Sequence record: MF158045
Length of the DNA: 64,000 bases
Source: Shigella phage Sf22
Strand: one strand, 5' to 3'
The notes under the pieces: model-generated
The model's input: only the letters and a program-made list of their open reading frames with translations
Databases searched by the model: none
Told to the model about the DNA's origin: nothing
Shown here: positions 5,041-55,485 of the stretch, piece by piece
Layout: every line of letters starts with the position of its first letter
Position numbering within the stretch: position 1 is the first letter of the stretch
Position numbers and translations under genes: made by a program

Positions 5041-5061
5041 AGCCTCTCTAGTGTTTATTCT

Positions 5062-5069
5062 ATTTATAA
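5062..5069 (-). promoter_or_regulatory. Candidate late promoter (TATAAATA) upstream of the alt pair
   Basis: Exact TATAAATA on minus strand ~25 nt upstream of the paralog B start; Alt is a virion-packaged protein. Confidence 0.45.
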
Positions 5070-5073
5070 AATT

Positions 5074-5091
5074 AAAGGCCCGAAGGCCTTT
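5074..5091 (-). terminator. Stem-loop AAAGGCC-CGAA-GGCCTTT with adjacent T-rich tract
   Basis: Perfect 7-bp stem, 4-nt loop; same hairpin sequence recurs at 52626-52643. Confidence 0.45.
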
Positions 5092-5278
5092 AGTAATCTA
5101 GTGGTAAGAGAGTACGATATATTTCAAACTTTGGTCCTTTTTCATAGGCATCAAATGTTTCTGTAAATTTATTATAAGCGTATGCATCTACAAATTCGAG
5201 AATGACTTGTGATACAGAAGTAGAAACATCTCCACCTTCTTTTTGAGCAATGACAATTGTTTCTAAGTAAGCTTTCAT
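5090..5278 (-). CDS. Hypothetical protein (62 aa)
   Basis: ORF track; start overlaps the ligase stop. Confidence 0.5.
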   Translation of the reverse strand: MKAYLETIVIAQKEGGDVSTSVSQVILEFVDAYAYNKFTETFDAYEKGPKFEIYRTLLPLDY

Positions 5279-31900: not shown

Positions 31901-32833
31901 GATACAACACGTTCTACTGTATTTGAAGTTGGTGATGAAACGTCTAATCATTTTTATTCTCAACGTAATAAAGATGGGAATATAGCGTTTAGCATTAATG
32001 GTACTGTAATGCCAATAAACATTAATGCTTCCGGTTTGATGAATGTTAATGGCGTTGCAACATTTGGTCGTTCAGTCACAGCCAATGGTGAATTCATTAG
32101 CAAGTCTGCAAATGCTTTCAGAGCAATTAGCGGTGATTACGGATTCTTTATTCGTAATGATGCTGCTAATACCTATTTTATGCTTACTGCATCCGGTGAT
32201 CAGACCGGTGGATTTAATGGATTACGTCCTTTGGCTATTAATAATGCATCTGGCCAAGTAACGATTGGTGAAGGCTTAATCATTGCCAAAGGTGCTACTA
32301 TAAATTCAGGTGGTTTAACTGTTAACTCGAGAATTCGTTCTCAGGGTACTAAAGCATCTGATTTATATACCCGTGCGCCAACATCTGATACTGTAGGATT
32401 CTGGTCAATCGATATTAACGATTCAGCCACTTATAACCAGTTCCCAGGTTATTTTAAAATGGTTGAAAAAACTAATGAAGTGACTGGGCTTCCATACTTA
32501 GAACGTGGCGAAGAAGTTAAATCTCCTGGTACACTGACTCAGTTTGGTAACACACTTGATTCGCTTTACCAAGATTGGATTACTTATCCAACGACGCCAG
32601 AAGCGCGTACCACTCGCTGGACACGTACATGGCAGAAAACCAAAAACTCTTGGTCAAGTTTTGTTCAGGTATTTGATGGAGGTAACCCTCCTCAACCATC
32701 TGATATCGGTGCTTTACCATCTGATAATGCTACAATGGGGAATCTTACTATTCGTGATTTCTTACGAATTGGTAATGTTCGCATTATTCCTGACCCAGTG
32801 AATAAAACGGTTAAATTTGAATGGGTTGAATAA
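28964..32833 (+). CDS. 34: Long tail fibre proximal subunit
   Basis: 1289 aa, the T4 gp34 length; repeated ~40-aa modules (TPKKL...RRG..EIATQ) typical of tail-fibre shafts; synteny. Confidence 0.95.
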   Translation: MAEIKRKFRAEDGLDAGGDKIINVALADRAVGTDGVNVDYLIQENTVQQYDPTRGYLKDFVIIYDNRFWAAINDIPKPAGAFNSGRWRALRTDANWITVSSGSYQLKSGEAISVNTAAGNDITFTLPSSPIDGDTIVLQDIGGKPGVNQVLIVAPVQSIVNFRGQQVRSVLMTHPKSQIVLIFSNRLWQMYVADYSREAVVVTPASLYQAQSNDFIVRRFTSAAPINVKLPRFANHGDIINFVDLDKLNPLYHTIVTTYDETTSVQEVGTHSIEGRTSIDGFLMFDDNEKLWRLFDGDSKARLRIITTNSNIRPNEEVMVFGANNGTTQTIELQLPTNISVGDTVKISMNYMRKGQTVKIKAAGEDKIASSVQLLQFPKRSEYPPEAEWVTVQELVFNGETNYVPVLQLAYIEDSDGKYWVVQQNVPTVERVDSLNNSTRARLGVIALATQAQANVDLENSPQKELAITPETLANRTATETRRGIARIATTAQVNQNTTFSFADDIIITPKKLNERTATETRRGVAEIATQQETNTGTDDTTIITPKKLQARQGSESLSGIVTFVSTAGATPASSRELNGTNVYNKNTNNLVVSPKALDQYKATPTQQGAVILAVESEVIAGQSQEGWANAVVTPETLHKKTSTDGRIGLIEIATQSEVNTGTDYTRAVTPKTLNDRRATESLSGIAEIATQVEFDAGVDDTRISTPLKIKTRFNSTDRTSVVALSGLVESGTLWDHYTLNILEANETQRGTLRVATQVEAAAGTLDNVLITPKKLLGTKSTESQEGVIKVATQSETVTGTSANTAVSPKNLKWIVQSEPTWAATTAIRGFVKTSSGSITFVGNDTVGSTQDLELYEKNSYAVSPYELNRVLANYLPLKAKAADTNLLDGLDSSQFIRRDIAQTVNGSLTLTQQTNLSAPLVSSSTATFGGSVSANSTLTISNTGTATRLIFEKGPQTGTNPAQTMTIRVWGNQFGGGSDTTRSTVFEVGDETSNHFYSQRNKDGNIAFSINGTVMPININASGLMNVNGVATFGRSVTANGEFISKSANAFRAISGDYGFFIRNDAANTYFMLTASGDQTGGFNGLRPLAINNASGQVTIGEGLIIAKGATINSGGLTVNSRIRSQGTKASDLYTRAPTSDTVGFWSIDINDSATYNQFPGYFKMVEKTNEVTGLPYLERGEEVKSPGTLTQFGNTLDSLYQDWITYPTTPEARTTRWTRTWQKTKNSWSSFVQVFDGGNPPQPSDIGALPSDNATMGNLTIRDFLRIGNVRIIPDPVNKTVKFEWVE

Positions 32834-32841
32834 GAGGTATT

Positions 32842-33957
32842 ATGGAAAAATTTATGGCAGAGTTTGGACAAGGATATGTCCAAACGCCATTTTTATCGGA
32901 AAGTAATTCAGTAAGATACAAAATAAGTATAGCGGGTTCTTGCCCGCTTTCTACAGCAGGACCATACGTTAAATTTCAGGATAATCCTGTAGGAAGTCAA
33001 ACATTTAGCGCAGGTCTTCATTTAAGAGTTTTTGACCCTTCCACCGGAGCATTAGTTGATAGTAAGTCATATGCTTTTTCGACTTCAAATGATACTACAT
33101 CAGCTGCTTTTGTTAGCTTCATGAATTCTTTGACAAATAATAGAATTGTTGCTATATTAACTAGTGGAAAGGTTAATTTTCCTCCTGAAGTAGTATCTTG
33201 GTTAAGAACCGCCGGAACGTCTGCTTTTCCATCTGATTCTATATTGTCAAGATTCGACGTATCATATGCTGCTTTTTACACTTCTTCTAAACGAGCTATT
33301 GCATTAGAACATGTTAAACTAAGTAATAGAAAAAGCACAGATGATTATCAAACTATTTTAGATGTAGTATTTGACAGTTTAGAAGATGTCGGAGCTACCG
33401 GGTTTCCAAGAAGAACGTATGAAAGCGTTGAGCAATTCATGTCAGCGGTTGGTGGAACTAATAACGAAATTGCGCGTCTACCAACTTCAGCTGCTATAAG
33501 TAAATTATCTGATTATAATTTAATTCCTGGAGATGTTCTTTATCTTAAAGCACAACTATATGCTGATGCTGATTTACTTGCTCTTGGAACTACGAATATA
33601 TCCATTCGATTTTATAATGCATCAAATGGATATATTTCCTCAACACAGGCTGAATTTACCGGGCAAGCTGGGTCATGGGAATTAAAGGAAGATTATGTAG
33701 TTGTTCCAGAAAACGCAGTAGGATTTACGATATACGCGCAGAGAACTGCTAAAGCTGGTCAAGGCGGAATGAGAAATTTAAGCTTTTCTGAAGTATCAAG
33801 AAACGGCGGTATTTCAAAACCTGCTGAATTTGGCGTCAATGGTATTCGTGTTAATTATATCTGTGAATCTGCTTCACCTCCGGATATAATGGTACTTCCT
33901 ACGCAAGCATCGTCTAAAACTGGTAAAGTGTTTGGACAAGAATTTAGAGAAGTATAA
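32842..33957 (+). CDS. 35: Long tail fibre hinge/knee connector
   Basis: 371 aa; position between 34 and 36. Confidence 0.9.
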   Translation: MEKFMAEFGQGYVQTPFLSESNSVRYKISIAGSCPLSTAGPYVKFQDNPVGSQTFSAGLHLRVFDPSTGALVDSKSYAFSTSNDTTSAAFVSFMNSLTNNRIVAILTSGKVNFPPEVVSWLRTAGTSAFPSDSILSRFDVSYAAFYTSSKRAIALEHVKLSNRKSTDDYQTILDVVFDSLEDVGATGFPRRTYESVEQFMSAVGGTNNEIARLPTSAAISKLSDYNLIPGDVLYLKAQLYADADLLALGTTNISIRFYNASNGYISSTQAEFTGQAGSWELKEDYVVVPENAVGFTIYAQRTAKAGQGGMRNLSFSEVSRNGGISKPAEFGVNGIRVNYICESASPPDIMVLPTQASSKTGKVFGQEFREV

Positions 33958-33960
33958 ATT

Positions 33961-33986
33961 GAGGGAGCCTTCGGGTTCCCTTTTTC
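33961..33986 (+). terminator. Rho-independent terminator after gene 35
   Basis: GGGAGCC-TTCG-GGTTCCC stem followed by TTTTTC. Confidence 0.55.
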
Positions 33987-33988
33987 TA

Positions 33989-33996
33989 TATAAATA
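33989..33996 (+). promoter_or_regulatory. Late promoter (TATAAATA) for gene 36
   Basis: Exact TATAAATA ~25 nt upstream of the gene 36 ATG. Confidence 0.6.
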
Positions 33997-34019
33997 CTAT
34001 TAAAATAAAGGGGCATACA

Positions 34020-34679
34020 ATGGCTGATTTAAAAGTAGGTTCAACAACTGGAGGCTCTGTCATTTGGCATCAAGGAAATTTTCCATTGAATCCAGCCGGT
34101 GACGATGTACTCTATAAATCATTTAAAATATATTCAGAATATAATAAACCACAAGCTGCTGATAACGATTTCGTTTCTAAAGCTAATGGTGGTACTTATT
34201 TAAATAAAGTAATTTTTAATAAAGGAATGACTGTTCCTGGCGCAGGGTCAGGTGACAATGGTATTTTTGCTGGTCCTGGTGATAATGCCACGTATGATAC
34301 TACAAATATGGATATTGTTTCGTGGTATGGTATTGGTTTTAAATCATCACAAGGATCAGCAGCCAGAACTGTGGTAATTAATACACGTAATGGCGATATT
34401 AGTACAAAAGGCGTTGTGTCGGCAACTGGTCAAGTAAGAAGTGATGCGGCTGCTCCTATAGCAGCGAATGACCTTACTAGAAAGGACTATGTTGATGGAG
34501 CAATAAATACTGTTACGGCAAATGCAAACTCTAGAGTGTTGCGTTCTGGCGACACTATGACAGGTAATTTAACGGCGCCAAACTTTTTCTCACAGAATCC
34601 AGCATCTCAACCTTCACATGTTCCACGATTTGACCAAATCGTGATTAAGGATTCTGTTCAAGATTTCGGCTATTATTAA
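34020..34679 (+). CDS. 36: Long tail fibre distal connector
   Basis: 219 aa; synteny. Confidence 0.9.
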   Translation: MADLKVGSTTGGSVIWHQGNFPLNPAGDDVLYKSFKIYSEYNKPQAADNDFVSKANGGTYLNKVIFNKGMTVPGAGSGDNGIFAGPGDNATYDTTNMDIVSWYGIGFKSSQGSAARTVVINTRNGDISTKGVVSATGQVRSDAAAPIAANDLTRKDYVDGAINTVTANANSRVLRSGDTMTGNLTAPNFFSQNPASQPSHVPRFDQIVIKDSVQDFGYY

Positions 34680-34687
34680 GAGGACTT

Positions 34688-37600
34688 ATGGCTACTTTAA
34701 AACAAATACAATTTAAAAGAAGCAAAACCGCAGGAGCACGTCCTGCTGCTTCAGTATTAGCCGAAGGTGAATTGGCTATAAACTTAAAAGATAGAACAAT
34801 TTTTACTAAAGATGATTCAGGAAATATCATTGATCTAGGTATTGCTAAAGGCGGTCAAATTGATGGAAATGTAACTATTGATGGAACTTTACGCGTCAAT
34901 GGACCAATAAACAACTTTGGAAATTTTTCTACAAGTGGTACTATTACGGCAAGTAATATTGTTTCTGCTACAGTATTCAGATCAACATCCGGTTCATTTT
35001 ATACAAGAGCAATAAATGATACTGCAAATGCCCATCTTTGGTTTGAAAATACGAATGGATCGGAGAGAGGGGTTTTATATTCAAAACCACAGTCTGAAAA
35101 TGAAGGCGTAATTACAATGCGCGTTCGCCAAGGAACCGCAGCAGGGGCTCAAAATTCAGAATTTCATTTCATTTCTACTGATGGCGGTATCTTCCAGGCA
35201 CGCAAATTAACTGCTTTAACTTCTATTAGTACACCAACTATTAGTGTTAATTTAATTAATCATGATTCTAAAGCCTTTGGACAATACGATTCACAATCAT
35301 TAGTTCAGTATGTTTATCCTGGAACCGGTGAAACAAATGGTGTAAACTATCTTCGTAAAGTTCGAGCTAAATCAGGTGGAACTATTTACCATGAAATTTG
35401 TACAGCTCAGACTGGGCTAGCTGATGAAGTTTCTTGGTGGACTGGTAATATACCGTTATTTAAACTATACGGTATTCGTAACGACGGTAGAATGATTATT
35501 CGCAATAGCTTGGCCATTGGTACTGTGACGGAAGGGTTTCCGTCAAGCGATTATGGAAATACTGGGGTAATGGGAGATAGGTATTTAGCTCTTGGCGATA
35601 ATGCTTCTGGACTTAAATGGGTTCGTACTGGCGTTATTGACTTAATGGCTAACGGTATTTCTGCGGCGTCTATTATTAATAATGGTATTAACAGTACTAA
35701 AAAATTAATGGTTGGTTATAGTCGAGATTCTGGTTCTACTTGGGATTTCCCAAATAACAACCAAGCAATGTTTACTGCGCGTACCGATGTTGATGGTAAT
35801 AATAACGGTGATGGTCAAACTCATATCGGTTATAGCAGTAATTCTAAAATGTATCACTATTTCCGTGGTACAGGTCGTATGTCCGTTAGTATGGGCGATG
35901 GACTTCTTGTTGAGCCTGGCATTTTAGATATTAAAACTGGTTCAAATTCATTAAATTTGCGTGCTGATGGTACTGTTGCATCTACTCAAGAAGTTAAGCT
36001 TAATAATGGGTTATTCTTTAATAGTAGTTCTTCTAACGCCGGTCTTAAATTTGGCGCTTCTTCTTCTATAAATGGAACTAAGACAATACAATGGAACGCA
36101 GGCACCCGCCCGGGTCAGAACAAAAGCTATGTGACCATGAAAGCATGGGGCAATGCATTTGAGGATAATACTAATAAAAACAGAGAAACTGTATTTGAAT
36201 TAGGCGATGGACAGGGTTGGCATTTTTATTCACAGCGCGTTGCTCCTGCAGCAGGTTCTACTGCCGGTTCTGTTGAATTTGCGATGGCCGGTAGTTTATT
36301 AACTTCTGGTTCTATTACAACAAGATCTTCCCTGAATGCTGATAATGGATTGTCTGTAAATGGACAAGCTAAATTTGGTGGAACGGCTGATGTATTAAGA
36401 ATTTGGAATGCTGAATACGGTGCTATTTTCCGTCGCTCAGAAAGTAATCTTTATATTATACCGACTCCTAAAGATGCTGGAGAATCGGGCGGTATAAGTA
36501 ATCTTAGACCATTGATAATAGAACTGAACACTGGCACAGTTAAAATGTCGCATGATGTTCATTTAGGAGATTCTGGATCTGGTACAGGACTTTTACAAGT
36601 AAGTAATAGTCTTAAAACTATTAAAATGATATGTCCAGTAACTATTAATGAACGCAATGCAGCGCTTACCCTGGATTCTCCTTCATCTTCTTCTGCTAAT
36701 TATTTACAGGGTTCTAAAGCTGGAACTAGATCATGGTACGTTGGTCTTGGCGGCGCTGGAAATGATTTATCTCTTTATAGCCAATCTTATGGACATGGTC
36801 TTGTTATAAGTGATAATTTCACGTCAATCACTAAGCCTCTTAAAGTCGGCAATGCCCAATTAGGAACTGACGGTAATATTACCAATGGTTCAGGAAACTT
36901 TGTCAACTTAAATACCACGTTAAATCGTAAAGTTAATTCTGGATTTATTACTTATGGAGCAACCTCTGGATGGTATAAGTTTGCAACAGTAACAATGCCA
37001 CAATCCACTTCGACGGTCTTCTTTAAAATAGTTGGAGGTTCTGGATTTAATAGCGGATTATTCACACAATGTAATATTGCTGAAATTGTTTTACGTACTA
37101 GTAATGAAAGACCTTCTGACTTAAATGCTGTATTATACACAAGAACAACTGGAATGTATAGCGCAGCATTTAGAAATATTGCAGTTAACAATGTCTCTGG
37201 AAATACATATGACATTTATGTTTATGCTGGAACATATTGTAATCAACTAGTTTGTGAATGGTCATGTACCGAAAATGCTACTGTTAGCGTTATTGGTATT
37301 AACTCATCTACCCAATCACCTGTGGATGCTCTTCCAGATACAGCAGTTGATGGGCAAGTTGCTAATGTTCTTAATAACTTGGTTGATCGTGGTAAAGTTA
37401 AGCGTTATGAAGCCGATTCTGAAATAGCTATTAATAGCCAAACCGGTATTCGTATCAGAAGCAATGCCGATAAAACTGGTTCTGTGGCTACAATGTTACG
37501 AAATGACGGTGGCAGTTTTTATATTCTGTTTACAGATAAAAATGCCACTGATGGCGCAGCAACTGTTAATGGTGATTGGAATAGTAAACGTCCTTTCGCA

Positions 37601-38377
37601 ATTAACTTAACAACCGGCGAAGTGATGATGAATAACGGCATAGCTGTTCGCAGCGCTGCTTTATTCTATAATAGCATAAACGTCAAAGATAATGGTTCTA
37701 TTAACTTTGATAAGTCCGGCGCTAACCCGAGAAACATGCGTATATTCCATGCAGGTGATGGCACTCGTGGTAATCGCATTGAAATTGCTGATGAAACAAA
37801 CTATATTGCTTACTTCCAAAAATTACCTGGTGGTCAAAATCAGGTTTCATTCAATAGTGCTACACTTTCTGGATTAACACAGTGTAATCAATTTGGTGTT
37901 AACACAACAAACGCACTTGGTGGAAACAGTATAACATTTGGTGATACTGATACTGGTATTAAGCAAAATGGCGATGGATTATTAGACATATATGCGAACA
38001 ACGTGCAAGTGTTCCGTTTCCAAAATGGTGATTTGTACTCATATAAAAATATAAATGCTCCAAACGTTTATATTCGTTCTGATATTCGTTTAAAATCTAA
38101 CTTCAAACCTATCGAAAATGCACTTGATAAAGTTGAAAAACTCAATGGTGTCATTTATGATAAAGCTGAATACATCGGTGGAGAGGCAATTGAAACTGAA
38201 GCGGGTATTGTAGCTCAAACGTTACAAGACGTTTTACCAGAAGCCGTCCGTGAAACAGAAGACAGCAAGGGTAATAAAATACTCACTGTTTCTTCTCAAG
38301 CCCAGATTGCTCTTCTGGTTGAAGCTGTGAAAACGCTTTCTTCTCGTGTAAAAGAACTTGAATCTAAACTTATGTAA
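34688..38377 (+). CDS. 37: Long tail fibre distal subunit with C-terminal intramolecular-chaperone-like domain
   Basis: 1229 aa; shares a WGN.F....TVFE.GD...HFYSQR motif with gp34; last ~105 aa (...YIRSDIRLKSNFKPIENALDKVEKLNGVIYDKAEY...) resemble a self-cleaving chaperone module. Confidence 0.9.
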   Translation: MATLKQIQFKRSKTAGARPAASVLAEGELAINLKDRTIFTKDDSGNIIDLGIAKGGQIDGNVTIDGTLRVNGPINNFGNFSTSGTITASNIVSATVFRSTSGSFYTRAINDTANAHLWFENTNGSERGVLYSKPQSENEGVITMRVRQGTAAGAQNSEFHFISTDGGIFQARKLTALTSISTPTISVNLINHDSKAFGQYDSQSLVQYVYPGTGETNGVNYLRKVRAKSGGTIYHEICTAQTGLADEVSWWTGNIPLFKLYGIRNDGRMIIRNSLAIGTVTEGFPSSDYGNTGVMGDRYLALGDNASGLKWVRTGVIDLMANGISAASIINNGINSTKKLMVGYSRDSGSTWDFPNNNQAMFTARTDVDGNNNGDGQTHIGYSSNSKMYHYFRGTGRMSVSMGDGLLVEPGILDIKTGSNSLNLRADGTVASTQEVKLNNGLFFNSSSSNAGLKFGASSSINGTKTIQWNAGTRPGQNKSYVTMKAWGNAFEDNTNKNRETVFELGDGQGWHFYSQRVAPAAGSTAGSVEFAMAGSLLTSGSITTRSSLNADNGLSVNGQAKFGGTADVLRIWNAEYGAIFRRSESNLYIIPTPKDAGESGGISNLRPLIIELNTGTVKMSHDVHLGDSGSGTGLLQVSNSLKTIKMICPVTINERNAALTLDSPSSSSANYLQGSKAGTRSWYVGLGGAGNDLSLYSQSYGHGLVISDNFTSITKPLKVGNAQLGTDGNITNGSGNFVNLNTTLNRKVNSGFITYGATSGWYKFATVTMPQSTSTVFFKIVGGSGFNSGLFTQCNIAEIVLRTSNERPSDLNAVLYTRTTGMYSAAFRNIAVNNVSGNTYDIYVYAGTYCNQLVCEWSCTENATVSVIGINSSTQSPVDALPDTAVDGQVANVLNNLVDRGKVKRYEADSEIAINSQTGIRIRSNADKTGSVATMLRNDGGSFYILFTDKNATDGAATVNGDWNSKRPFAINLTTGEVMMNNGIAVRSAALFYNSINVKDNGSINFDKSGANPRNMRIFHAGDGTRGNRIEIADETNYIAYFQKLPGGQNQVSFNSATLSGLTQCNQFGVNTTNALGGNSITFGDTDTGIKQNGDGLLDIYANNVQVFRFQNGDLYSYKNINAPNVYIRSDIRLKSNFKPIENALDKVEKLNGVIYDKAEYIGGEAIETEAGIVAQTLQDVLPEAVRETEDSKGNKILTVSSQAQIALLVEAVKTLSSRVKELESKLM

Positions 38378-38379
38378 AA

Positions 38380-38400
38380 GAGGGCTTCGGCCCTCTAAGG
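38380..38400 (+). terminator. Stem-loop AGAGGGC-TTCG-GCCCTCT after gene 37
   Basis: Perfect 7-bp stem; weak T-tract, so may be a stability element rather than a strong terminator. Confidence 0.4.
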
Positions 38401-38407
38401 ATTTTTA

Positions 38408-39202
38408 ATGGCAATTGTAGGTGTTCCTGGCTGGATTGGTGAATCTGCCGTGAATGAAACTGGACAGCGTTGGATGGATGCTGCGATGAGAGCAGTTCGT
38501 GTTTCAGTTCCTGGTTGGATGAGCTCAATGGCTGGGCAATCTAAAGAAGTATATTATAGCATTGGTGCTAGCAATTCTTACAATAAAGACACACTAATAA
38601 ATTATCTCAAATCTCAAGGTAGTACTCCTGTTGTTGTTACTATTACTGGTAACCTAGTTTCTTCATCTGCAAGGCAACCTTGCTTAGATTTTCCTAGCTC
38701 ATTAACTAATGCTTATGTAACGCTTATTATAAATGGCGGTGTAACAGTATATGGTCGCGGAGGACGCGGCGCGCAAGCGGGAAACCAGGCGGGTGAAGCT
38801 GGTGGTACTGCAATTAACAATGGTATAGGTACTCGTCTACGAATCACTAACAATGGAGCAATCGCTGGCGGTGGTGGTGGTGGCGGCGCCCAATCAACTG
38901 ATAATGGATGGGGAGGTAAATATGTTTCTGGCGGCGGCGGCGGACGTCCTTTCGGAGCTGGTGGTAATAATGGAGCAAAAGCTCCGGGTGCATCAGCATC
39001 TTTAACATCTCCAGGCGCAGGTGGAAAAATGTATTCCGGCGTTGGATACTACGGTGGTGACGGTGGTAATGTTGGTGAACGAGGTAAGGATGCGGTTAGA
39101 TTGAACGGCTATTCGAACTCACCTGGCGCAGCAGGTAAAGCTGTTACTGGTAACGCACCAACATGGACTAAGGTTGGTACAATATATGGTTCAAGAGTAT
39201 AA
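38408..39202 (+). CDS. 38: Receptor-recognising adhesin (T2-type gp38) with glycine-rich motifs
   Basis: 264 aa; several poly-Gly blocks (GGGGGGG, GGGGG) separating variable segments; position after 37. Confidence 0.85.
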   Translation: MAIVGVPGWIGESAVNETGQRWMDAAMRAVRVSVPGWMSSMAGQSKEVYYSIGASNSYNKDTLINYLKSQGSTPVVVTITGNLVSSSARQPCLDFPSSLTNAYVTLIINGGVTVYGRGGRGAQAGNQAGEAGGTAINNGIGTRLRITNNGAIAGGGGGGGAQSTDNGWGGKYVSGGGGGRPFGAGGNNGAKAPGASASLTSPGAGGKMYSGVGYYGGDGGNVGERGKDAVRLNGYSNSPGAAGKAVTGNAPTWTKVGTIYGSRV

Positions 39203-39234
39203 TTTTTGAATAAATATCCTTAAAAGGAGGGTCT

Positions 39235-39891
39235 ATGGCAGCACCTAGAATATCATTTTCGCCCTCTGATATTCTATTTGGTGTTCTAGATCGCTTGTTC
39301 AAAGATAACGCTACCGGGAAAGTTCTTGCTTCCCGGGTAGCTGTCGTAATTCTTTTATTTATGATGGCGATTGTTTGGTATAGGGGAGATAGTTTCTTTG
39401 AGTACTATAAGCAATCAAAGTATGAAACATACAGTGAAATTATTGAAAAGGAAAGAAATGCACGCTTTGAATCTGTCGCCCTGGAACAACTCCAGATAGT
39501 TCATATATCATCTGAGGCAGACTTTAGTGCGGTGTATTCTTTCCGCCCTAAAAACTTAAACTATTTTGTTGATATTATAGCATACGAAGGAAGATTACCT
39601 TCAACAATAACTGAAAAATCACTTGGAGGATATCCTGTTGATAAAACTATGGATGAATATACAGTTCATTTAAATGGACGTCATTATTATTCTGACTCAA
39701 AATTTGCTTTTTTACCAACTAAAAAGCCTACTCCCGAAATAAACTACATGTACAGTTGTCCATATTTTAATTTGGATAATATCTATGCTGGAACGATAAC
39801 AATGTACTGGTATAGAAATGATCATATAAGTAATGACCGCCTTGAATCAATATGTGCCCAGGCGGCCAGAATATTAGGAAGGGCTAAATAA
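39235..39891 (+). CDS. t: Holin
   Basis: 218 aa, MAAPRISFSPSDILFGVLDRLFKDNATGKVLASRVAVVILLFMMAIVWYRGDSF... matches recalled T4 holin T. Confidence 0.95.
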   Translation: MAAPRISFSPSDILFGVLDRLFKDNATGKVLASRVAVVILLFMMAIVWYRGDSFFEYYKQSKYETYSEIIEKERNARFESVALEQLQIVHISSEADFSAVYSFRPKNLNYFVDIIAYEGRLPSTITEKSLGGYPVDKTMDEYTVHLNGRHYYSDSKFAFLPTKKPTPEINYMYSCPYFNLDNIYAGTITMYWYRNDHISNDRLESICAQAARILGRAK

Positions 39892-40164
39892 TTATTTGTT
39901 CGTATACATCTCTAGATATCGATATACACCCTCAAAACCCTCGTTGAATTCGTCGATGAGGGTTTTCTTATCTTCTTGAGTTAATTCAGAAACAATTTTA
40001 CGGAATGAATTCTGATTTAATTTTCTACCTTCATGCGTTACTCCAATCTCATTCAGAAATGCAATAAAATTAGCACGATTCTCAACAATATCTTCTCTGG
40101 AAAATTTAATCAAAATAGACGCAACAGTAATAATTTCACGAACTGTATCAATGTTTTTATTCAT
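39892..40164 (-). CDS. asiA: Anti-sigma70 factor
   Basis: 90 aa, MNKNIDTVREIITVASILIKFSREDIVENRANFIAFLNEIGVTHEGRKLNQNSF... matches recalled T4 AsiA. Confidence 0.93.
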   Translation of the reverse strand: MNKNIDTVREIITVASILIKFSREDIVENRANFIAFLNEIGVTHEGRKLNQNSFRKIVSELTQEDKKTLIDEFNEGFEGVYRYLEMYTNK

Positions 40165-42745: not shown

Positions 42746-42895
42746 TTACTGCATGACTGTGATAACTGTCATGATAACACGTTGAATTCCGAACGCAAGA
42801 AGACCTCCTGCTACGGCTGGAACAACGCCTAAACCCGCCAGTAAAATGCTACCAGATACTAATGCCGCGCTTGTAATACCTATGAATGGACTCAT
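42746..42895 (-). CDS. Small hydrophobic protein (49 aa) between 52 and motA
   Basis: MSPFIGITSAALVSGSILLAGLGVVPAVAGGLLAFGIQRVIMTVITVMQ; below the ORF-track size cut-off; start overlaps the gene 52 stop. Confidence 0.5.
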   Translation of the reverse strand: MSPFIGITSAALVSGSILLAGLGVVPAVAGGLLAFGIQRVIMTVITVMQ

Positions 42896-44220
42896 TTGAT
42901 TTCCTCTAAATCTTTGGTGTATTCTGTAACTACATCAGTAGTTTTCCAATATTCGTTTTCTTCTTTTTTAGCTTTAGCTTCTTCTGCAAGTTTCTTTGCT
43001 TCGTCGGAAGTCATATGAAAAATATTCATTCCGACTAGTTTATCAACATAAGAAGAATACATCTCAATTTTAGAAAGTTCTTCAGTCAGTTCTTTACGAG
43101 TTTTACCCTGTACAACAATTTCACCTGAAATTACTTTCTTAATGAAATGTGCCTTGGCAAAGGCTAAACGAAATGCTGATTCAGTTTCTTTAATTTTGTT
43201 ATCAATTCGTTTTTGGACATAAGTTTTACGAACTTCAACAAAGTCTTTAATTAAATCAACTACGTTATCGTAAACTTGTAGCTTTCCTTTCTCATTAATG
43301 ACTGTAATATTTTGGGAACGACGCTCAATCAACCCGAAGTCTTTCATAATTTTTGCATGGCGTTCTTCTTCGTTATCGCTCAAAGAATATTCTTTACGGA
43401 ATTTAACTTTGAATCCAAACCCGTGCTCACCGCAAGCATCATCCCATGTAATGAAGCCTTTATCTTCAAGCGGGTCTAAGATTTTACTCACATAAGTTTC
43501 ACGATCATACTTATACGGAATCTCGGTGATATGCATTTGAGTTCGTGAAGTAAACTTATATGTTCCACGAATTTCATATTGCCCATCAATTTCAACGACT
43601 TCACCACGAAATTCTGGGAATTCTACCTTCGGTTTAGTTACTTTCTTTCCTTGAAGAGCTTGCAGTACAGCTTTCTTAACAGAAGAAACACTATGAGGAA
43701 GAATGTAAGTTGCATAACCAGTTGCAATACCGGAAACACCATTAAGAAGAACAGTAGGAATAATAGGCAAATAGAAAGCAGGCGGAATGTGTTCTTTATC
43801 TTGATGTACCGGAGCATATTCAGTATCTTTATATACGTTATAGAAATTTTTACTTACACGAGCAAAAATATAACGACTTGCCGCTGCCTTTTGGACAGTA
43901 CGAGAACCAAAGTTTCCTTGACCATCTAACAGAGGAAAGTTATTATTCCAAGTATTAGCCATCAAAGCACCTGCATCTTGTGCAGAGTTTTCGCCATGGT
44001 GATATCCAAGGTCCGCTACACCGCCTGCAATAGAAGCGAGTTTGTGAAACTTATCTTTATTTCCTCGTGCCAAATCAAGAGCTCGAGCAATAACAAATCG
44101 TTGAACTGGCTTAAATCCGTCAATCATATTTGGGATAGCACGATTTTCAACCGTGTACATAGCATAAGCCAGTGCTTCATTATCAATGATACTTTTTAAA
44201 TCGCGATTATTCAGTTGCAT
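42892..44220 (-). CDS. 52: DNA topoisomerase II medium subunit
   Basis: 442 aa, MQLNNRDLKSIIDNEALAYAMYTVENRAIP... with GyrA/ParC-like motif; matches recalled T4 gp52. Confidence 0.95.
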   Translation of the reverse strand: MQLNNRDLKSIIDNEALAYAMYTVENRAIPNMIDGFKPVQRFVIARALDLARGNKDKFHKLASIAGGVADLGYHHGENSAQDAGALMANTWNNNFPLLDGQGNFGSRTVQKAAASRYIFARVSKNFYNVYKDTEYAPVHQDKEHIPPAFYLPIIPTVLLNGVSGIATGYATYILPHSVSSVKKAVLQALQGKKVTKPKVEFPEFRGEVVEIDGQYEIRGTYKFTSRTQMHITEIPYKYDRETYVSKILDPLEDKGFITWDDACGEHGFGFKVKFRKEYSLSDNEEERHAKIMKDFGLIERRSQNITVINEKGKLQVYDNVVDLIKDFVEVRKTYVQKRIDNKIKETESAFRLAFAKAHFIKKVISGEIVVQGKTRKELTEELSKIEMYSSYVDKLVGMNIFHMTSDEAKKLAEEAKAKKEENEYWKTTDVVTEYTKDLEEIK

Positions 44221-48309: not shown

Positions 48310-50487
48310 TTAGGCCGCAAGGGCCTTCATAGTTTTGGCGATTTGGGAAACTTCATCATCACTTAAAGAGTTGCGATATCCGATGAAGTCGGAAACAATA
48401 CGGAATTTCTTGGTAAACTCAGCAACCATTTTATCACTATTTTTTGAAGCATTACGTGATAATTCATCAAAAAGATTAGTTACCGTCCAGATGTCATGAC
48501 CGATGGTATCTTTTCCACCATTAAAATATACACCACGCAATGAACTAACTATATTAGCGAGTCGTGTATATTCTTCAGAAACTTCATCTGTACTGAAGTA
48601 CTTCATCATAAAATCTAGTTCAGGATACTTGATAATTTTATCAATATATCGTTGAGCTGAACTTGAATAACCTACGTACTTATCATAATCTACATCATCA
48701 AAAGCATCTACATATAAATCACGCAAAGCTTCAAAAATACATTGGCACTGACCGAGTTCTTTTACCTTTTTCTGTAAAAGCGGACGAATAACATAAAATT
48801 CATTAATGCCAATAAGATTAGCCATACGAATCAAAATATTCATAGATGGATGACAAAGAGATGTAGTACCATCCATAGAGAAAATATCAGAACGATGCAT
48901 ATACGCTACATACCCAGTAATTTCATCTGCTTCTGATGTGAGCGTAAATAATTCCTCTTTTTCCCAGCGCCCGTCTTTAATTTCAAACTTAAATGCTGTA
49001 GCAGCTTTAGGACGAGGAGCTTTACTTTTAACTATCTTTGGAATATAGCTTTTAACTAAAGCTTCAATTTCTGACAAATAATGAATGTTAACTTCATCAC
49101 TTTCAAACATCGCCATAATATCAGGAAGCAAATCAATCTGCGATTCTACTTCTGGATTAATAAACAGAAGGCGTTCGTTGTGATGAATATTCAAAGTGTT
49201 ATTAAATTCACTATCATCTAGCGCATGTGCTAATCCACGGACAATATTAACACGATTTTTAATATTATCAATAACGATATTAATTTTTGTTGTATTAATA
49301 CCAAACAGACGATAACTTGACGCAACGGCTGATGTTTCATGACTTTGCTTAATGCGTTTCAGTCGAGGGTCAAGATTTACTTCATACACAACTCCTGCAT
49401 TGCATAACTTACTGTCAGGTTCAAACATGCTCTGCATCTTTTTATATGACAGATTTTTAGTCGTGAATTTGACTGAATTACTAATCATATAATCTCGAGC
49501 AGAATACCCCATCTTCATTAATTCGCGATATGCGTGACGAGGAGATGTAGATTCTTTAAATCGTTTTACATCTTCATTAAATGCTTTCTCACTGAGTTCT
49601 TTAACTCGTTCAATGATATTTTTACGAGTGCGATCATCTAGTGAAAGAGCCTCGCGAGATGGAGCAATATCAAGTGAACCCATTGGAAACTTAATGTAAT
49701 TCACTTCATTGCGAATGCTTAGCCAGTTACGGTCTCTAATAACACCATCGATAGGATAAACAATACCGCCATAGATAGCATATAATCCACCACGATCAGG
49801 CCAGTATCTTTCTGGATTTACACCATAATAATCATCAAAATCAGGAAAATAATCAATTTCGCGGTCAAGACCATTAATGATAGCCAAATCTTTGAACGGT
49901 CGCATGATATAAGAAACTTCATAAGCAAAGTTTCTAAAGTCTTTTTCTTCAACTGGAACTACGATTTCAATACCAGTTTTATCATCTGGACCCATTTCTT
50001 TTACGAATGTAGGTTTAATCTGTGGGCCATCACCATCCATGTAAGCTACATAACCACGAATTTCACCTTTATGATACGAAGTAATACTAAACGTATCAGT
50101 ATAACTAAACGGAGATTTAGAACCTAAACCAAATCCGCCAATAAAGTCATTAGATTCAGCCTTAGATGAACTGAAGTATGAATTATACAGCCCAGGAGAA
50201 TTATCATCACCCTGAATATCAAAATCACTCATACCCGGACCAAAATCTCGACAAACAAATCGTGGATCTAATCGTCCTGGAACTTGAATGATAAATTTTT
50301 CAGGATTTCCATTAAGTGCATGAGCATCAATCATGTTAGTAATCAATTCACGGACTACTGCGCGAATCTTGTTTGTATACAAATCAGATGACAGAATTTT
50401 AAATACTTTAGGATTTGCTGCGATGCTAAATGCTTTTGATTTAGAACCATTGCCAAGAATTGTTTCTTTTTCAGTGGTGATAATCAT
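48310..50487 (-). CDS. rIIA: rIIA protein
   Basis: 725 aa; N-terminal GHKL-type ATPase-like region. Confidence 0.95.
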
Positions 50488-50497
50488 AATTTCCTCA

Positions 50498-50701
50498 TTA
50501 ATTCATATTACGTTTAATAACTTCAGCAACTTCTAGTAGTTCATCTTTAGTTGCGGTGTCGGATTGAATTTTATCTCTAATATCTTTAAAGCGGTTTTTA
50601 AATTCTTCGGCTTCTCCCATATCGAAAAAGCGTTGAATGATTCTATATTCTCGATGAACTGCTTTATCAAAAAGTTCTAAATTTACTCTATATGATTTCA
50701 T
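50498..50701 (-). CDS. Hypothetical protein (67 aa), rIIA.1 position
   Basis: ORF track. Confidence 0.55.
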
Positions 50702-50755
50702 TTCAATATCCTCATTTGCCCAATTAATTATACCACATCCTTGTGGTAAAGTAAA

Positions 50756-52576
50756 CTACTGGCTCATCCATTCTTTACGAAGGTCAGCATTATCTCCCAT
50801 GAGCATTTCAAAAAGCTCTTTCCAATTCTCAGGAAGTTTAACAACATCATATACTGGATTTTGAATCATCTCACGATATTCAGATTTTTCCAAAGAGCCA
50901 AGTCCCTTAATATAACGGATGCTATGTTTAGGTAGAGCATCTTTGGCACTCTCATATTCAGCGACTGTATAAAACCATTCTTGTTTTTTACCGACCTGAG
51001 CGATGATTACAGGAGTTTTGACAAAGCGAATTCGTCCTTGCTCAAACAATTCTGGCCAATTACTAAAAAATCCGAGCAGAGAAGGATAAATGCTTCCTAA
51101 ACCATCATGGTCAGCATCAGTCATAATAGCAATATTATGATAATTCAAGTTTTCAGCTTTTTCACCGAGAACTAGACCAGTGATTGCGCAAATATCAAAT
51201 AATTCTTTGTTTTTAAGCATATCTGCATAAGACATACCCCAACTGTTGAGAACTTTACCACGCAATGGATAACCACCGTGAAGTTCTTTATCACGAACAT
51301 CAATAAGATATCCGATAGCCGAATCACCCTCAGTCAAGAAAAGAGTAGTATCAGCATCTTTACCGCAAAGATTCGCTTTGATATGTTTATGAACTTTAGC
51401 TTTAGAAGCCTTTTTAGCTGCTTTAGTTTCAGCTGCTTTTTCTGCTGCCAATTTACGGGCCAAGGCAGCTTCAATAATCGGCATTAAAATTGCTTCATTA
51501 TTTAGAATAGCGCGTGAAATCTTTTTAGCATCAAGCTGAATATGACTACGAATTTCGCCAAATGGAGAAGTCAAACGCTCTTTAGTTTGAGAATCAAATC
51601 GCATGTTTTTCATATCACGGACAAACATAACGATAGTCAAACATTCTTTGACACGTGCTTTAGTTACATCAATTTTGAACTTACGTTTGATTTGTGGAAT
51701 AAGGTCTTCACAAATATCATCCATAACACAGTCAATGTGATGGCCACCATTCTTAGTGTGAATGTTATTCACATAAGTTAATTGGCGAAATCCATCCGGT
51801 GAACGACCAACCGCAATAGAACAATTTTCTTGTTCTTGAACAATAGCATGTTCATCATACTGTCGTGCATATTTCTTAAAATTGCCCTGAACCTTTTTAC
51901 CATTAAAGGTAAATTGAATATCAGGATAAACTACTGCAAGTGTCTGGAGACGATCCAGTGTAATGTCAAGATAAACTTGGGACAGCTCATTAGTTTCAAA
52001 TGACATAAAATCTGGAATGAAAGTAACACGAGTTCCTTTCCATTTTCCAGGAATAGTTTCCCAGGATTTATTTTCCATGCCATTTGAACAACGAACTACA
52101 ATATTATTTTGACCATCGCCAGTTTCACCGACAAACATCACAGAAAAAATGTTAGTTAAACTAGAACCAACACCATTCATACCACCGGTGACACGTTCTT
52201 TATCATCACCAAAGTTACCACCCGCTTTTGGAATAGTCCAAGCAGCAACTGGACCAGGAATTTCTTCACCGGTAGGTGTTTTAACCATCGCTTGTGGAAT
52301 ACCACGACCGTTATCTTCAACTGTTACTTGATTGTTTTTGATAGTAACATTAATTTTATTTGCGAATTTAAACTTAGTACGAATACCTTCATCTACTGAG
52401 TTATCGATAATTTCATCAATAAGCTTAACAAGACCAGGTACATACTGAACACTTTCCCATTTACCAAACAGAAAGCGCTCATGCATTTCATTAGCAGAAG
52501 AGCCAATATACATGCCGCTACGCTTTTTGATATGTTCAATATCGCTCAGAATTTTAATTTCATTCTTAATCATCAC
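50756..52576 (-). CDS. 39: DNA topoisomerase II large (ATPase) subunit, single uninterrupted ORF
   Basis: 606 aa GyrB-like protein; continuous, so it covers the regions that T4 splits into genes 39 and 60. Confidence 0.93.
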   Translation of the reverse strand: MMIKNEIKILSDIEHIKKRSGMYIGSSANEMHERFLFGKWESVQYVPGLVKLIDEIIDNSVDEGIRTKFKFANKINVTIKNNQVTVEDNGRGIPQAMVKTPTGEEIPGPVAAWTIPKAGGNFGDDKERVTGGMNGVGSSLTNIFSVMFVGETGDGQNNIVVRCSNGMENKSWETIPGKWKGTRVTFIPDFMSFETNELSQVYLDITLDRLQTLAVVYPDIQFTFNGKKVQGNFKKYARQYDEHAIVQEQENCSIAVGRSPDGFRQLTYVNNIHTKNGGHHIDCVMDDICEDLIPQIKRKFKIDVTKARVKECLTIVMFVRDMKNMRFDSQTKERLTSPFGEIRSHIQLDAKKISRAILNNEAILMPIIEAALARKLAAEKAAETKAAKKASKAKVHKHIKANLCGKDADTTLFLTEGDSAIGYLIDVRDKELHGGYPLRGKVLNSWGMSYADMLKNKELFDICAITGLVLGEKAENLNYHNIAIMTDADHDGLGSIYPSLLGFFSNWPELFEQGRIRFVKTPVIIAQVGKKQEWFYTVAEYESAKDALPKHSIRYIKGLGSLEKSEYREMIQNPVYDVVKLPENWKELFEMLMGDNADLRKEWMSQ

Positions 52577-52625
52577 TTATCCTCGTTTGGTTTCGGGAAT
52601 ATTATACTCCGGTAATCATAAAGCT

Positions 52626-52643
52626 AAAGGCCCGAAGGCCTTT
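52626..52643 (-). terminator. Stem-loop AAAGGCC-CGAA-GGCCTTT
   Basis: Same hairpin as 5074-5091; lies between the lipoprotein ORF stop and the gene 39 start. Confidence 0.4.
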
Positions 52644-52912
52644 TATTTAAAACGAATAGTTGAATCCTTAAAGAACAGCCCAGAACATACTGTTCCTTCT
52701 ACTTTCTGCCCAGTAGGTCCAACAGCACGAAATCCAGTATGTTGGAAATCATTTTCAGAGCAACCAAACCAATTATATCCAGTGATTTCAATATTAGTAA
52801 AACCGCTTGATGACAAAATTTTGGTTGCATTATCAGCATCAGTACATCCTGCTAAAGACACTGCTAATACTAATGCTGCGATAGAACGATTAATATATTT
52901 CATAATTTTCAC
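52643..52912 (-). CDS. Predicted lipoprotein (89 aa)
   Basis: Signal peptide with lipobox LAGC. Confidence 0.55.
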   Translation of the reverse strand: MKIMKYINRSIAALVLAVSLAGCTDADNATKILSSSGFTNIEITGYNWFGCSENDFQHTGFRAVGPTGQKVEGTVCSGLFFKDSTIRFK

Positions 52913-53280
52913 TTAAATTTAATGGCTTGAAGAAGACTAATAATTCTCAAGCGACTTCTTTCATCTTTAACTGTAAAAGAAAGAGGGTCACCAGATTTCA
53001 TAGTAATAGTACATTCAAAATCAAAATCTTCGGAAACTTCTTTGAAGAAGTCAAATTCTTCATCATAAATTAGAACATTACTCTGACAACTATGAAGAAT
53101 TTTTCCATCATTTCCGGATGCTGTACTAATCATTGTAACATTATGACCTTTCATATCTTCAACGATAAATTCGCTTGTAGATATTACAGCATTAATAGAA
53201 CCATTCCTATAAATAGCAGACATTAGATATTTCTTTTCTTCGCCTTTGCGAATACGATACTTCTTACCGATTTTAAACAT
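52909..53280 (-). CDS. Hypothetical protein (123 aa)
   Basis: ORF track. Confidence 0.5.
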   Translation of the reverse strand: MFKIGKKYRIRKGEEKKYLMSAIYRNGSINAVISTSEFIVEDMKGHNVTMISTASGNDGKILHSCQSNVLIYDEEFDFFKEVSEDFDFECTITMKSGDPLSFTVKDERSRLRIISLLQAIKFK

Positions 53281-53282
53281 AA

Positions 53283-53459
53283 TTATCCTTTAAGTAAGTC
53301 GTAAAATCCACCATTCACATGCTTAGGAGCAGAAGGCCGACGAATAGACAGACGATGACATTTAGGGCAAACATCATTTTCTCGTTCAGAAATCTTTTTA
53401 ATTTTTTCATATTCATGCCCGCAATCTTCGGATTGGCATTTATAATCATACATTGGCAT
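53283..53459 (-). CDS. Small zinc-ribbon protein (58 aa), FmdB-like
   Basis: Hand-translated MPMYDYKCQSEDCGHEYEKIKKISERENDVCPKCHRLSIRRPSAPKHVNGGFYDLLKG; two CxxC pairs; below the ORF-track cut-off. Confidence 0.5.
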   Translation of the reverse strand: MPMYDYKCQSEDCGHEYEKIKKISERENDVCPKCHRLSIRRPSAPKHVNGGFYDLLKG

Positions 53460-54208: not shown

Positions 54209-54385
54209 TCAAACTTTAATATTTTCACAATCCCAATTTTTACGAACAATCTTCAAAAGCTGCAGTAAATCTTTACATTCAGCAATATCGATAACACATC
54301 CACGAGAATCTTCCATTATCGCACGATAACCGTAAGCCATACCATAATCATTAAAAGATTGCTCGATGATAATTAAGTTTTCCAT
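54209..54385 (-). CDS. Hypothetical protein (58 aa; start moved to MENLIIIEQ)
   Basis: Conserved leader TTGGAGAATAAAATG. Confidence 0.45.
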   Translation of the reverse strand: MENLIIIEQSFNDYGMAYGYRAIMEDSRGCVIDIAECKDLLQLLKIVRKNWDCENIKV

Positions 54386-54409
54386 TTTATTCTCCAAGTT
54401 GTTTTCTGT

Positions 54410-54482: not shown

Positions 54483-54974
54483 TTATGCATAGCGAGCTTT
54501 GCTGTAGTGTTTAATCCAACTTTCAGGAATGACTTTGTATGTTCCTAAAAATACCGCGTTGTATAACTTAACGCCATCTTCTACCCATTGATCAGTAATG
54601 TATGCACACATAGCGCGAGTACGGTTAACAACACCTTCCTCACCTTCAGTAAATTCAAACTCATAAGGAGCAACGAACTTGATAGCTTGACCGAGTTTCC
54701 ACTTAAAGTCTACACCTACATGCGAAGTATCAATCGTTTCAATTCCTTTAGCGGGAACAGCTTTCAAAAACGCAGGCTCAAGAAATTTCCATCGAACATA
54801 ACCAAACTGAGGTTTAGACATTCCATCTTTAGGAATGATACGCACTTTTACTTCAGAATCTTCATCTTTAACACCATGTTTAAGCTGAATGCTTACGACT
54901 TCAACCAATTTTCCTGCTGCCTTAGAACGGGATTTATCAGATACACGAGCAATTTCACCGATATTAATATTCAT
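54483..54974 (-). CDS. MotB-like protein (163 aa), by position and size
   Basis: ORF track; C-terminal region paralogous to the next ORF. Confidence 0.5.
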   Translation of the reverse strand: MNINIGEIARVSDKSRSKAAGKLVEVVSIQLKHGVKDEDSEVKVRIIPKDGMSKPQFGYVRWKFLEPAFLKAVPAKGIETIDTSHVGVDFKWKLGQAIKFVAPYEFEFTEGEEGVVNRTRAMCAYITDQWVEDGVKLYNAVFLGTYKVIPESWIKHYSKARYA

Positions 54975-55047: not shown

Positions 55048-55485
55048 CTAGCTTACACGAACATTAATCACTGCGCTGCGAGGAACTACAGAGTACTCTC
55101 CAGCATGAACTACGTTCAGAAGTTCAACACCATCTTCAATCCACTGATCAGTCACCCATCCACCCACAGGATTCGCGAATGGACGACGAATATAAACTGC
55201 CTTACACAGCAGATCAGTTGGATCTTCAGGTTTTTCAATTTCTGTCAATAGACTAAAATCTTTTTCATAAATAATAAGCGGTGATACCATTCCATAATAG
55301 TTTCTAATTTCAATATACATCATACCGATAAGAATTCCGCTATTAACACTAATAACAGTAAAAGGATATCCGCCAGTTAAACCAAGAAGTTCACAAAACT
55401 TATTATGAGCTGTATTAGACAGTACCGAAAAATTCTTAATTTCATCAAATTTTTTCAATTGATAAACAGCATTATTTTTAATCAT
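55048..55485 (-). CDS. Hypothetical protein (145 aa), paralog of the C-terminal domain of the preceding ORF
   Basis: Shared segment ...TDQW[IV]EDGV.L.N.V..G.Y.V.P.S... Confidence 0.5.
   Translation of the reverse strand: MIKNNAVYQLKKFDEIKNFSVLSNTAHNKFCELLGLTGGYPFTVISVNSGILIGMMYIEIRNYYGMVSPLIIYEKDFSLLTEIEKPEDPTDLLCKAVYIRRPFANPVGGWVTDQWIEDGVELLNVVHAGEYSVVPRSAVINVRVS

Follow-up and report, generated by a model that had tools for sequence, protein, structure and literature searches.

The large subunit of the type II topoisomerase of Shigella phage Sf22 is encoded in one piece. We have very little doubt that its gene 39 is an intact, uninterrupted Tequatrovirus gene for the GyrB-like large subunit of a type IIA topoisomerase. 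A first-pass annotation of the same DNA had proposed this unsplit arrangement, and it is borne out by the integrity of the reading frame, by its collinearity with the two corresponding T4 genes, and by the lack of both a mobile cassette and a translational bypass. The analysis covered a stretch of 64,000 nucleotides of sequence record MF158045, hereafter the window. A 24-kb stretch of the window is 95–97% identical to many Tequatrovirus genomes (e.g., ESh33 and GiZh), and the DNA is therefore that of a T-even phage. Gene 39 is placed between rIIA.1 and 39.1 (rIIA, rIIA.1, 39, 39.1), as in T2 and T4; rIIB, rIIA, and rIIA.1 lie downstream, and 39.1, 39.2, goF, cef, and motB upstream, a gene order found around gene 39 in T4, T2, and MLF4 alike. 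An unsplit gene 39 is what textbooks set against the split gene and the bypass of T4, and it has been known for decades. The arrangement seen in Sf22 is thus already known, being both common and published.

Three subunits in a type IIA enzyme are known only from the topoisomerase II of T4, made of gp39, gp60, and gp52; the T2 and T6 enzymes consist of two subunits, gp39 and gp52 (PMC11461880). Strand-passage activity has been demonstrated for both the T6 and the T4 enzymes; the T4 insertion in the TOPRIM domain, of about 70 amino acids, hangs outside the domain, affects activity little, and is dispensable (PMC11461880). MobA is a free-standing HNH endonuclease, and the insertion of its gene split the topoisomerase gene (PMC2988022, a review); the accessible part of another review (PMC5009743) holds no mention of mobA. 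The MobA element is 1097–1106 nt long, is always inserted at residues 466–473 of the large subunit (Topo2L), ends just after D490 or G491, and adds a C-terminal extension (CTE), an N-terminal extension (NTE), and the bypass cassette (bioRxiv 10.1101/2022.08.31.505936). According to the same preprint, cassette-free genomes with a “parental” Topo2L, 96–99% identical to the invaded ones, are found in every clade. The first-pass annotation had described the T4 gene as divided by a mobile element and had listed the 50-nt bypass beside the split as a further peculiarity. The mobile-element origin of the split holds; the bypass, however, is not a separate feature, as it belongs to the same MobA cassette.

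In Sf22, the list of open reading frames gives a frame of 606 codons on the minus strand (50756–52576), beginning with GTG and closed by a stop at 50756–50758. Re-translation of this interval found no internal stop, the terminal one being the only one, and the claim of a frame free of stops and frameshifts was upheld. The length of 606 amino acids that had been given with the single reading frame needs correction, since it goes back to the mechanical start at the GTG. The gene almost certainly starts one codon further on, at the ATG at 52573, for a predicted protein of 605 amino acids, and the GTG is probably unused. This reading is based on the spacing of the Shine-Dalgarno-like GAGGA, which stands 6 nt 5′ of the ATG vs only 3 nt 5′ of the GTG in GAGGATAAGTGATG (the sequence upstream of the start being ...AACGAGGATAAGTGATGATT), and on the homologs, all of which begin with MIKNE: this start and the length of 605 amino acids are common to T4 gp39, T2 gene 39, MLF4, and the T6 chain in the PDB. 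Gene 39 is likewise 1818 nt long in T2 and in the MLF4 ortholog. A promoter and terminator scan of positions 50400–53400 returned 8 sigma-70-like sites, fewer than the 11.5 of shuffled sequence, and is uninformative. The coordinates of the features discussed here are collected in Table 1.

Table 1 Features of gene 39, its partner and neighbor genes, and the DNA blocks shared with T4 (positions in the window unless stated otherwise)
Feature	Position	Strand	Position in T4	Description or basis
Gene 39, topoisomerase II large subunit, GyrB-like (GHKL ATPase, transducer, TOPRIM)	50756..52573	minus		605 aa + stop, uninterrupted
GTG, mechanical ORF start behind the length of 606 aa	52574..52576	minus		one codon 5′ of the ATG
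Shine-Dalgarno-like GAGGA, inferred to serve the ATG at 52573	52580..52584	minus		read from the sequence
GHKL motifs: N-box EIIDNSVDE (aa 54–62), G1 DNGRG (aa 87–91), G2 GGMNGVG (aa 130–136)	52166..52414	minus		motif scan
QTK loop of the transducer (aa 329–331), context RFDSQTKE	51581..51589	minus		motif scan
TOPRIM catalytic Glu motif EGDSA (aa 415–419)	51317..51331	minus		motif scan
TOPRIM DxDxD motif DADHDG (aa 486–491)	51101..51118	minus		motif scan
63 nt replaced by the MobA cassette in T4 (gene nt 1420–1482, aa 474–494)	51092..51154	minus		BLAST junctions and codon view
Gene 52, GyrA-like DNA breakage-reunion subunit	42892..44220	minus		442 aa, with ...AAASRYIF...; ORF list and NCBIfam
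rIIA.1, directly downstream of gene 39	50498..50701	minus		Pfam T4_RIIA1, 2.2e-33
DNA block 1	52905..51156		5661..3911	96.4% identity
DNA block 2	51136..51102		2888..2854	80% identity, weak block
DNA block 3	51091..50400		2793..2102	98.7% identity

That a single reading frame spans both T4 parts was confirmed by a collinear and nearly identical alignment to gp39 plus gp60. Residues 1–473 of the Sf22 protein correspond without gaps to residues 1–473 of T4 gp39 (465/473 identical, 98.3%), and residues 472–605 correspond to residues 27–160 of the bypass-joined T4 gp60 (128/134 identical, 95.5%). The sole gaps relative to T4 are the 43-residue C-terminal tail of its gp39 and the N-terminal leader of about 30 residues of its gp60. 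A PDB chain in which T4 gp39 and gp60 are artificially fused (682 residues) also matches the Sf22 protein in two stretches. Counted over residues 1–473 and 477–605, identity to the T4 counterparts is 95–98%, and the flanking genes are alike. At the DNA level, the shared sequence falls into three blocks (Table 1); 19 nt of the window lie between the first and the second, vs 1022 nt in T4, and 10 nt lie between the second and the third, vs 60 nt in T4.

When the two genomes are viewed codon by codon, T4 departs after codon 473 (...GEKA) into the 43-residue tail and a stop. Its gene 60 then contributes the leader of about 30 residues, a copy of ...MNYANVAIMTDADHDG, a UAG, and the 50-nt gap, after which reading resumes at LGSIYPS.... 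Sf22 gene 39, in contrast, reads straight through as ...GEKA ENLNYHNIAIMTDADHDG LGSIYPS.... The T4 split point thus coincides with the 5′ edge of the replaced 63-nt stretch, after codon 473 at position 51155, and the place of the 50-nt gap is after Gly491, between positions 51101 and 51100, where Sf22 reads GAT GGT TTA GGA. The published ends of the MobA element agree exactly with both junctions, the one behind codon 473 and the one behind Gly491. Sf22 fits among the “parental” Topo2L genes (bioRxiv 10.1101/2022.08.31.505936), with 96–99% identity to an invaded relative and no notable difference from them; its homology to the invaded gene stops cleanly at codon 473 and again directly behind Gly491. 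The T4 features missing from Sf22 are the mobA/60.1 insert of about 1 kb, the tail of gp39, the leader of gp60 with its nascent-peptide signal KYKLQNNVRRSIKSSS, and the 50-nt gap with its GGA/UAG take-off, its hairpin, and its GGA landing site. The Sf22 enzyme is therefore predicted to be built from two kinds of subunit rather than three.

No trace of the MobA cassette is left in Sf22 gene 39. A tblastn search of all six frames of the 64 kb, with the intact 272-residue MobA of T4T, the gp39 tail (CTE), and the gp60 leader (NTE) as queries, returned only chance matches (best E values from 0.37 to 2.5). In particular, the window holds no NTE similarity that could correspond to the nascent-peptide signal, and Sf22 has ...LGEKAENLNYHN... 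at that position. Codon 491, which occupies the T4 take-off position, is GGT and not GGA, and is followed by TTA GGA AGC without a stop. A search of the 64 kb for the opening 24 nt of the bypass element, comprising the take-off GGA and the start of the gap, gave no match even with three mismatches allowed. Folding of the RNA surrounding the would-be take-off site showed no gain in stability over shuffled sequence (z = −0.41) and no significant take-off hairpin, whereas the T4 region forms its GC hairpin (z = −2.05). Residual take-off or landing sequence, which the first-pass annotation had suggested looking for, is thus absent. A bypass cassette in Sf22 gene 39 was ruled out as a candidate feature, there being no GGA-UAG, no hairpin, and no match to the 24 nt.

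The closest comparison is with the other phages in which the gene is whole. In T2 and T6, as in Sf22, gene 39 encodes 605 residues with an uninterrupted TOPRIM region, and the Sf22 protein aligns with the T6 chain from residue 1 to residue 605. The T2 gene differs from that of Sf22 at 65 of 1818 nt (96.4% identity) and at two amino acids; 63 codons are affected, 61 synonymously and 2 non-synonymously. With synteny the same, the two genes are set apart only by this neutral-looking, mostly synonymous drift. The 63 nt that the cassette replaces in T4 carry a single difference from T2, as against 17 differences from the element-borne copy of T4T, counted over the 57 positions for which T4T has an equivalent (6 nt, in codons 474 and 475, have none). 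Nucleotides 1408–1473 of the gene are identical to those of T2. At nucleotide 1474, immediately on the 3′ side of the place where the bypass is inserted, Sf22 has TTA where T2 has the synonymous CTA, and T4 also has TTA.

An uninterrupted gene might also have been restored secondarily, by the “hit and run” proposed for some Aeromonas phages, in which an ancestor carried the MobA/bypass cassette and then lost it. Loss of the element has been published for other clades (bioRxiv 10.1101/2022.08.31.505936), and the flank 5′ of the insertion site is indeed nearer to T4T than to T2, with 2 vs 10 differences over gene nucleotides 1201–1419 and 10 vs 24 over nucleotides 901–1200. This T4T-like flank implies that gene 39 shares recent ancestry, or has recombined, with an invaded lineage. 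However, the mosaic recombination of T-even phages accounts for such a flank without a past invasion. The described hit-and-run cases, moreover, retain the CTE and the NTE, whereas the Sf22 window is devoid of similarity to the CTE, the NTE, and MobA; the replaced 63 nt belong to the parental type; and, at exactly 605 residues, the protein is as long as that of T2 and T6. We therefore regard a past invasion followed by loss as very unlikely. It may be added that, had recombination with a naive phage replaced the cassette precisely, no trace would remain and function would be unaffected.

The gene as read is also well represented in the public record, which bears on whether the open frame could be due to a faulty assembly or consensus, or to a dead pseudogene in which no stop has yet arisen. 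The identical 605-residue protein has been recovered independently on 376 public contigs, under names that include ‘DNA topoisomerase large subunit [Escherichia phage AV121]’, and its cluster at 90% identity has 281 members; the same collinear DNA is found in hundreds of phage genomes. The ratio of 61 synonymous to 2 non-synonymous codon changes relative to T2 points to purifying selection on a working protein, and the catalytic motifs are all intact. Together with the 376 contigs, this ratio also shows that the frame is not open by chance. On these grounds, namely independent recovery, synonymous bias, and intact motifs, an artefact or a pseudogene was rejected, and the probability that we would still assign to either is negligible.

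The intact form of the gene is by far the more frequent one. The junction was queried with 171 nt that span both T4 insertion points, at least 80% of which had to be covered in one piece. Uninterrupted junctions were found in 447 phage records, with T2 among the best matches (98.8%), and the T4 MobA cassette was found in 43 records of the phage collection. The unsplit form thus exceeds the split form by about 10:1 in the collection searched. At least 80% of the whole-gene query is covered in 518 records, a figure that is not usable as a count of unsplit genes because, at that query length, the pieces flanking the 1-kb insert of T4 get joined; the short junction query was used for counting for this reason. 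The unsplit gene 39 is the majority state and apparently also the ancestral one, and finding it in Sf22 is therefore no surprise. It is T4, rather than Sf22, that is the exception in the layout of gene 39.

The protein carries the domains and motifs of its family. Pfam matches cover the ATPase (HATPase_c, 1.9e-09, above cut-off), the transducer (DNA_gyraseB, 1.5e-13), and TOPRIM_C (4.2e-07). The core Toprim model of Pfam is absent from the match list, and the motif scan nonetheless found the EGDSA and DxDxD motifs. In Sf22, both of these metal-binding motifs, the Glu and the DxDxD, are on one polypeptide; in T4, EGDSA precedes the split point and is part of gp39. Residues 4–604 align in one stretch with positions 13–630 of the 641 positions of a cellular GyrB model, so that the one-piece layout is the general one among type IIA topoisomerases. 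Cellular GyrB and ParE have this domain order and these catalytic motifs as well, as does eukaryotic Topo II in its N-terminal half; over residues 10–603, the Sf22 protein is collinear with human Topo II alpha and beta. In bit score, eukaryotic Topo II (206) lies nearer to the phage protein than GyrB does (130), and both human enzymes outscore bacterial GyrB.

Scores against the cellular families were far below their thresholds, at 218, 169, and 209 bits for NCBIfam TIGR01059, TIGR01055, and TIGR01058 (cut-offs 882, 723, and 900) and 234 bits for the curated GyrB/ParE equivalog (cut-off 740). Because the scores lie so far under the equivalog cut-offs, gp39 is to be classed, on its sequence, as a homolog of GyrB/ParE and not as a gyrase or topoisomerase IV ortholog in the strict sense. 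The partner subunit behaves in the same way. Gene 52 lies about 6.5 kb from gene 39 on the same strand, and its product, an A-type subunit with the catalytic tyrosine that is annotated in relatives as the type II topoisomerase medium subunit, matches GyrA/ParC-type NCBIfam models at 2e-45 to 1e-23, every one of them under the cellular equivalog cut-offs. Such sub-cut-off scores for gp39 and gp52 are what is expected of a divergent phage enzyme.

The best PDB match to the Sf22 protein was a 611-residue chain, present in 8ylu and five more entries, which aligned from 1–605 on 1–605 with 1388 bits. We take 8ylu to be the T6 gp39 of the Nat Commun 2024 cryo-EM study. T6 gp39 (PDB 8ylu, 8yo1, and others) offers a structurally solved close ortholog of the Sf22 protein. 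Like the topoisomerase of T4, the Sf22 enzyme is expected to relax DNA and not to supercoil it. The cryo-EM structures reported are those of T6 topoisomerase II (Nat Commun 2024, PMC11461880).

With these relatives as a guide, the working of the Sf22 enzyme can be proposed. The N-terminal GHKL ATPase and transducer domains would bind and hydrolyze ATP, and the C-terminal TOPRIM domain, through Glu415 of EGDSA and the DADHDG at residues 486–491, would bind the catalytic Mg2+. Paired with gp52, gp39 would form a (gp39)2(gp52)2 complex, as in the T2 and T6 enzymes and unlike the three-subunit version of T4. By analogy, this complex is presumed to support phage DNA replication as an ATP-dependent relaxing topoisomerase; the activity, the subunit stoichiometry, and the sensitivity to MobA that we ascribe to Sf22 are inferred from the literature on T2, T4, and T6. 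For annotation, the product is best labeled as a T2/T6-type two-subunit topoisomerase II; gene 39 should be called from the ATG, for a length of 605 residues.

In T4 and a minority of its relatives, a MobA homing-endonuclease cassette of about 1.1 kb has entered the TOPRIM region between the two metal-binding motifs, and this cassette supplied new tails for both half-proteins together with the 50-nt bypass gap. The Sf22 gene has either never been invaded or bears no trace of an invasion. In work by Bonocora et al. (2011), to the extent that it is related in bioRxiv 10.1101/2022.08.31.505936, MobA nicks T2 inside the region that the element replaces, both the split and the bypass pass to T2 through MobA when infections are mixed, and the bypass insert blocks MobA. 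Across this reported nick region of T2, Sf22 keeps the parental sequence. Because the homing-site region is identical to that of T2 over gene nucleotides 1408–1473, we predict that Sf22 would be open to MobA homing and would acquire the cassette in mixed infection. There is a slim chance that the Sf22 gene is instead a scarless revertant of a MobA-invaded ancestor, or that the TTA-for-CTA allele alters recognition by MobA, which would make Sf22 a naturally resistant cassette-free phage. Under the preferred reading of an intact parental gene, Sf22 could be used as a naive recipient for MobA homing.

A 29-aa C-terminal motif, TDQW[VI]EDGV.L.N.V..G.Y.V[IV]P.S, is common to the MotB homologue and the adjacent ORF on its upstream side (Table); the two are 55% identical over it (E 7e-10), and the upstream ORF also matches a 'MotB-like' PHROG (2.7e-15). 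Judged from their sequences, the two look like tandem paralogues with a common C-terminal module. Between cef and motB lies a small ORF of 62 aa. No gene is annotated at this site in the T4 record, but the relative MLF4 carries an annotated protein of 89 aa there.

The ORF between the 39.1 and 39.2 homologues has a counterpart of the same length (123 aa) in MLF4, whereas T2 has a 105-aa ORF in its place and T4 only a spacer of ~106 nt. It is a member of PHROG 622 (9e-30), and its N-terminal part is weakly similar to a goF family (2e-07). The 39.2 homologue is as long as that of T2 (58 aa) but is annotated at only 45 aa in the T4 record, and because of this difference the T4 start codon may have been set too far downstream. 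T4 39.1 is annotated only in a 65-aa version, compared with 86 aa in the window, where the N-terminus bears a lipoprotein-type signal (…LAVSLAGC); the homologue in one relative is named 'putative lipoprotein'.

Features upstream of gene 39 in the window
Feature	Coordinates	Strand	Length	Remarks
39.1 homologue	52643..52903	-	86 aa	from MKYINRS...; PHROG 902
ORF between 39.1 and 39.2 homologues	52909..53280	-	123 aa	
39.2 homologue	53283..53459	-	58 aa	FmdB-like zinc ribbon (CxxC…CxxC)
Small ORF	54209..54397	-	62 aa	from TTG; PHROG 3720 (1.6e-28)
MotB homologue	54483..54974	-		
Upstream neighbour of MotB homologue	55048..55485	-		

Within gene 39, at aa 326-328 (51590..51598), directly ahead of the QTK loop of the transducer domain, the T4 reference (NC_000866) reads MRLIRQTKE, whereas the window has MRFDSQTKE, as do T2 and re-sequenced T4T. 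The underlying DNA of the T4 reference shows a compensated pair of changes, a T lost and a G gained 7 nt later (ATTTGATTCT vs ATTGATTCGT). On this comparison, the T4 reference reading of this conserved motif appears to reflect either an early sequencing error or a change that arose in a laboratory strain.

Elsewhere in the window, GC skew is positive at ~30000..40000, where GC content rises to 0.40, and negative across the remainder; this composition suggests a block of plus-strand genes, presumably tail-fibre genes 34-38 by synteny with T4.
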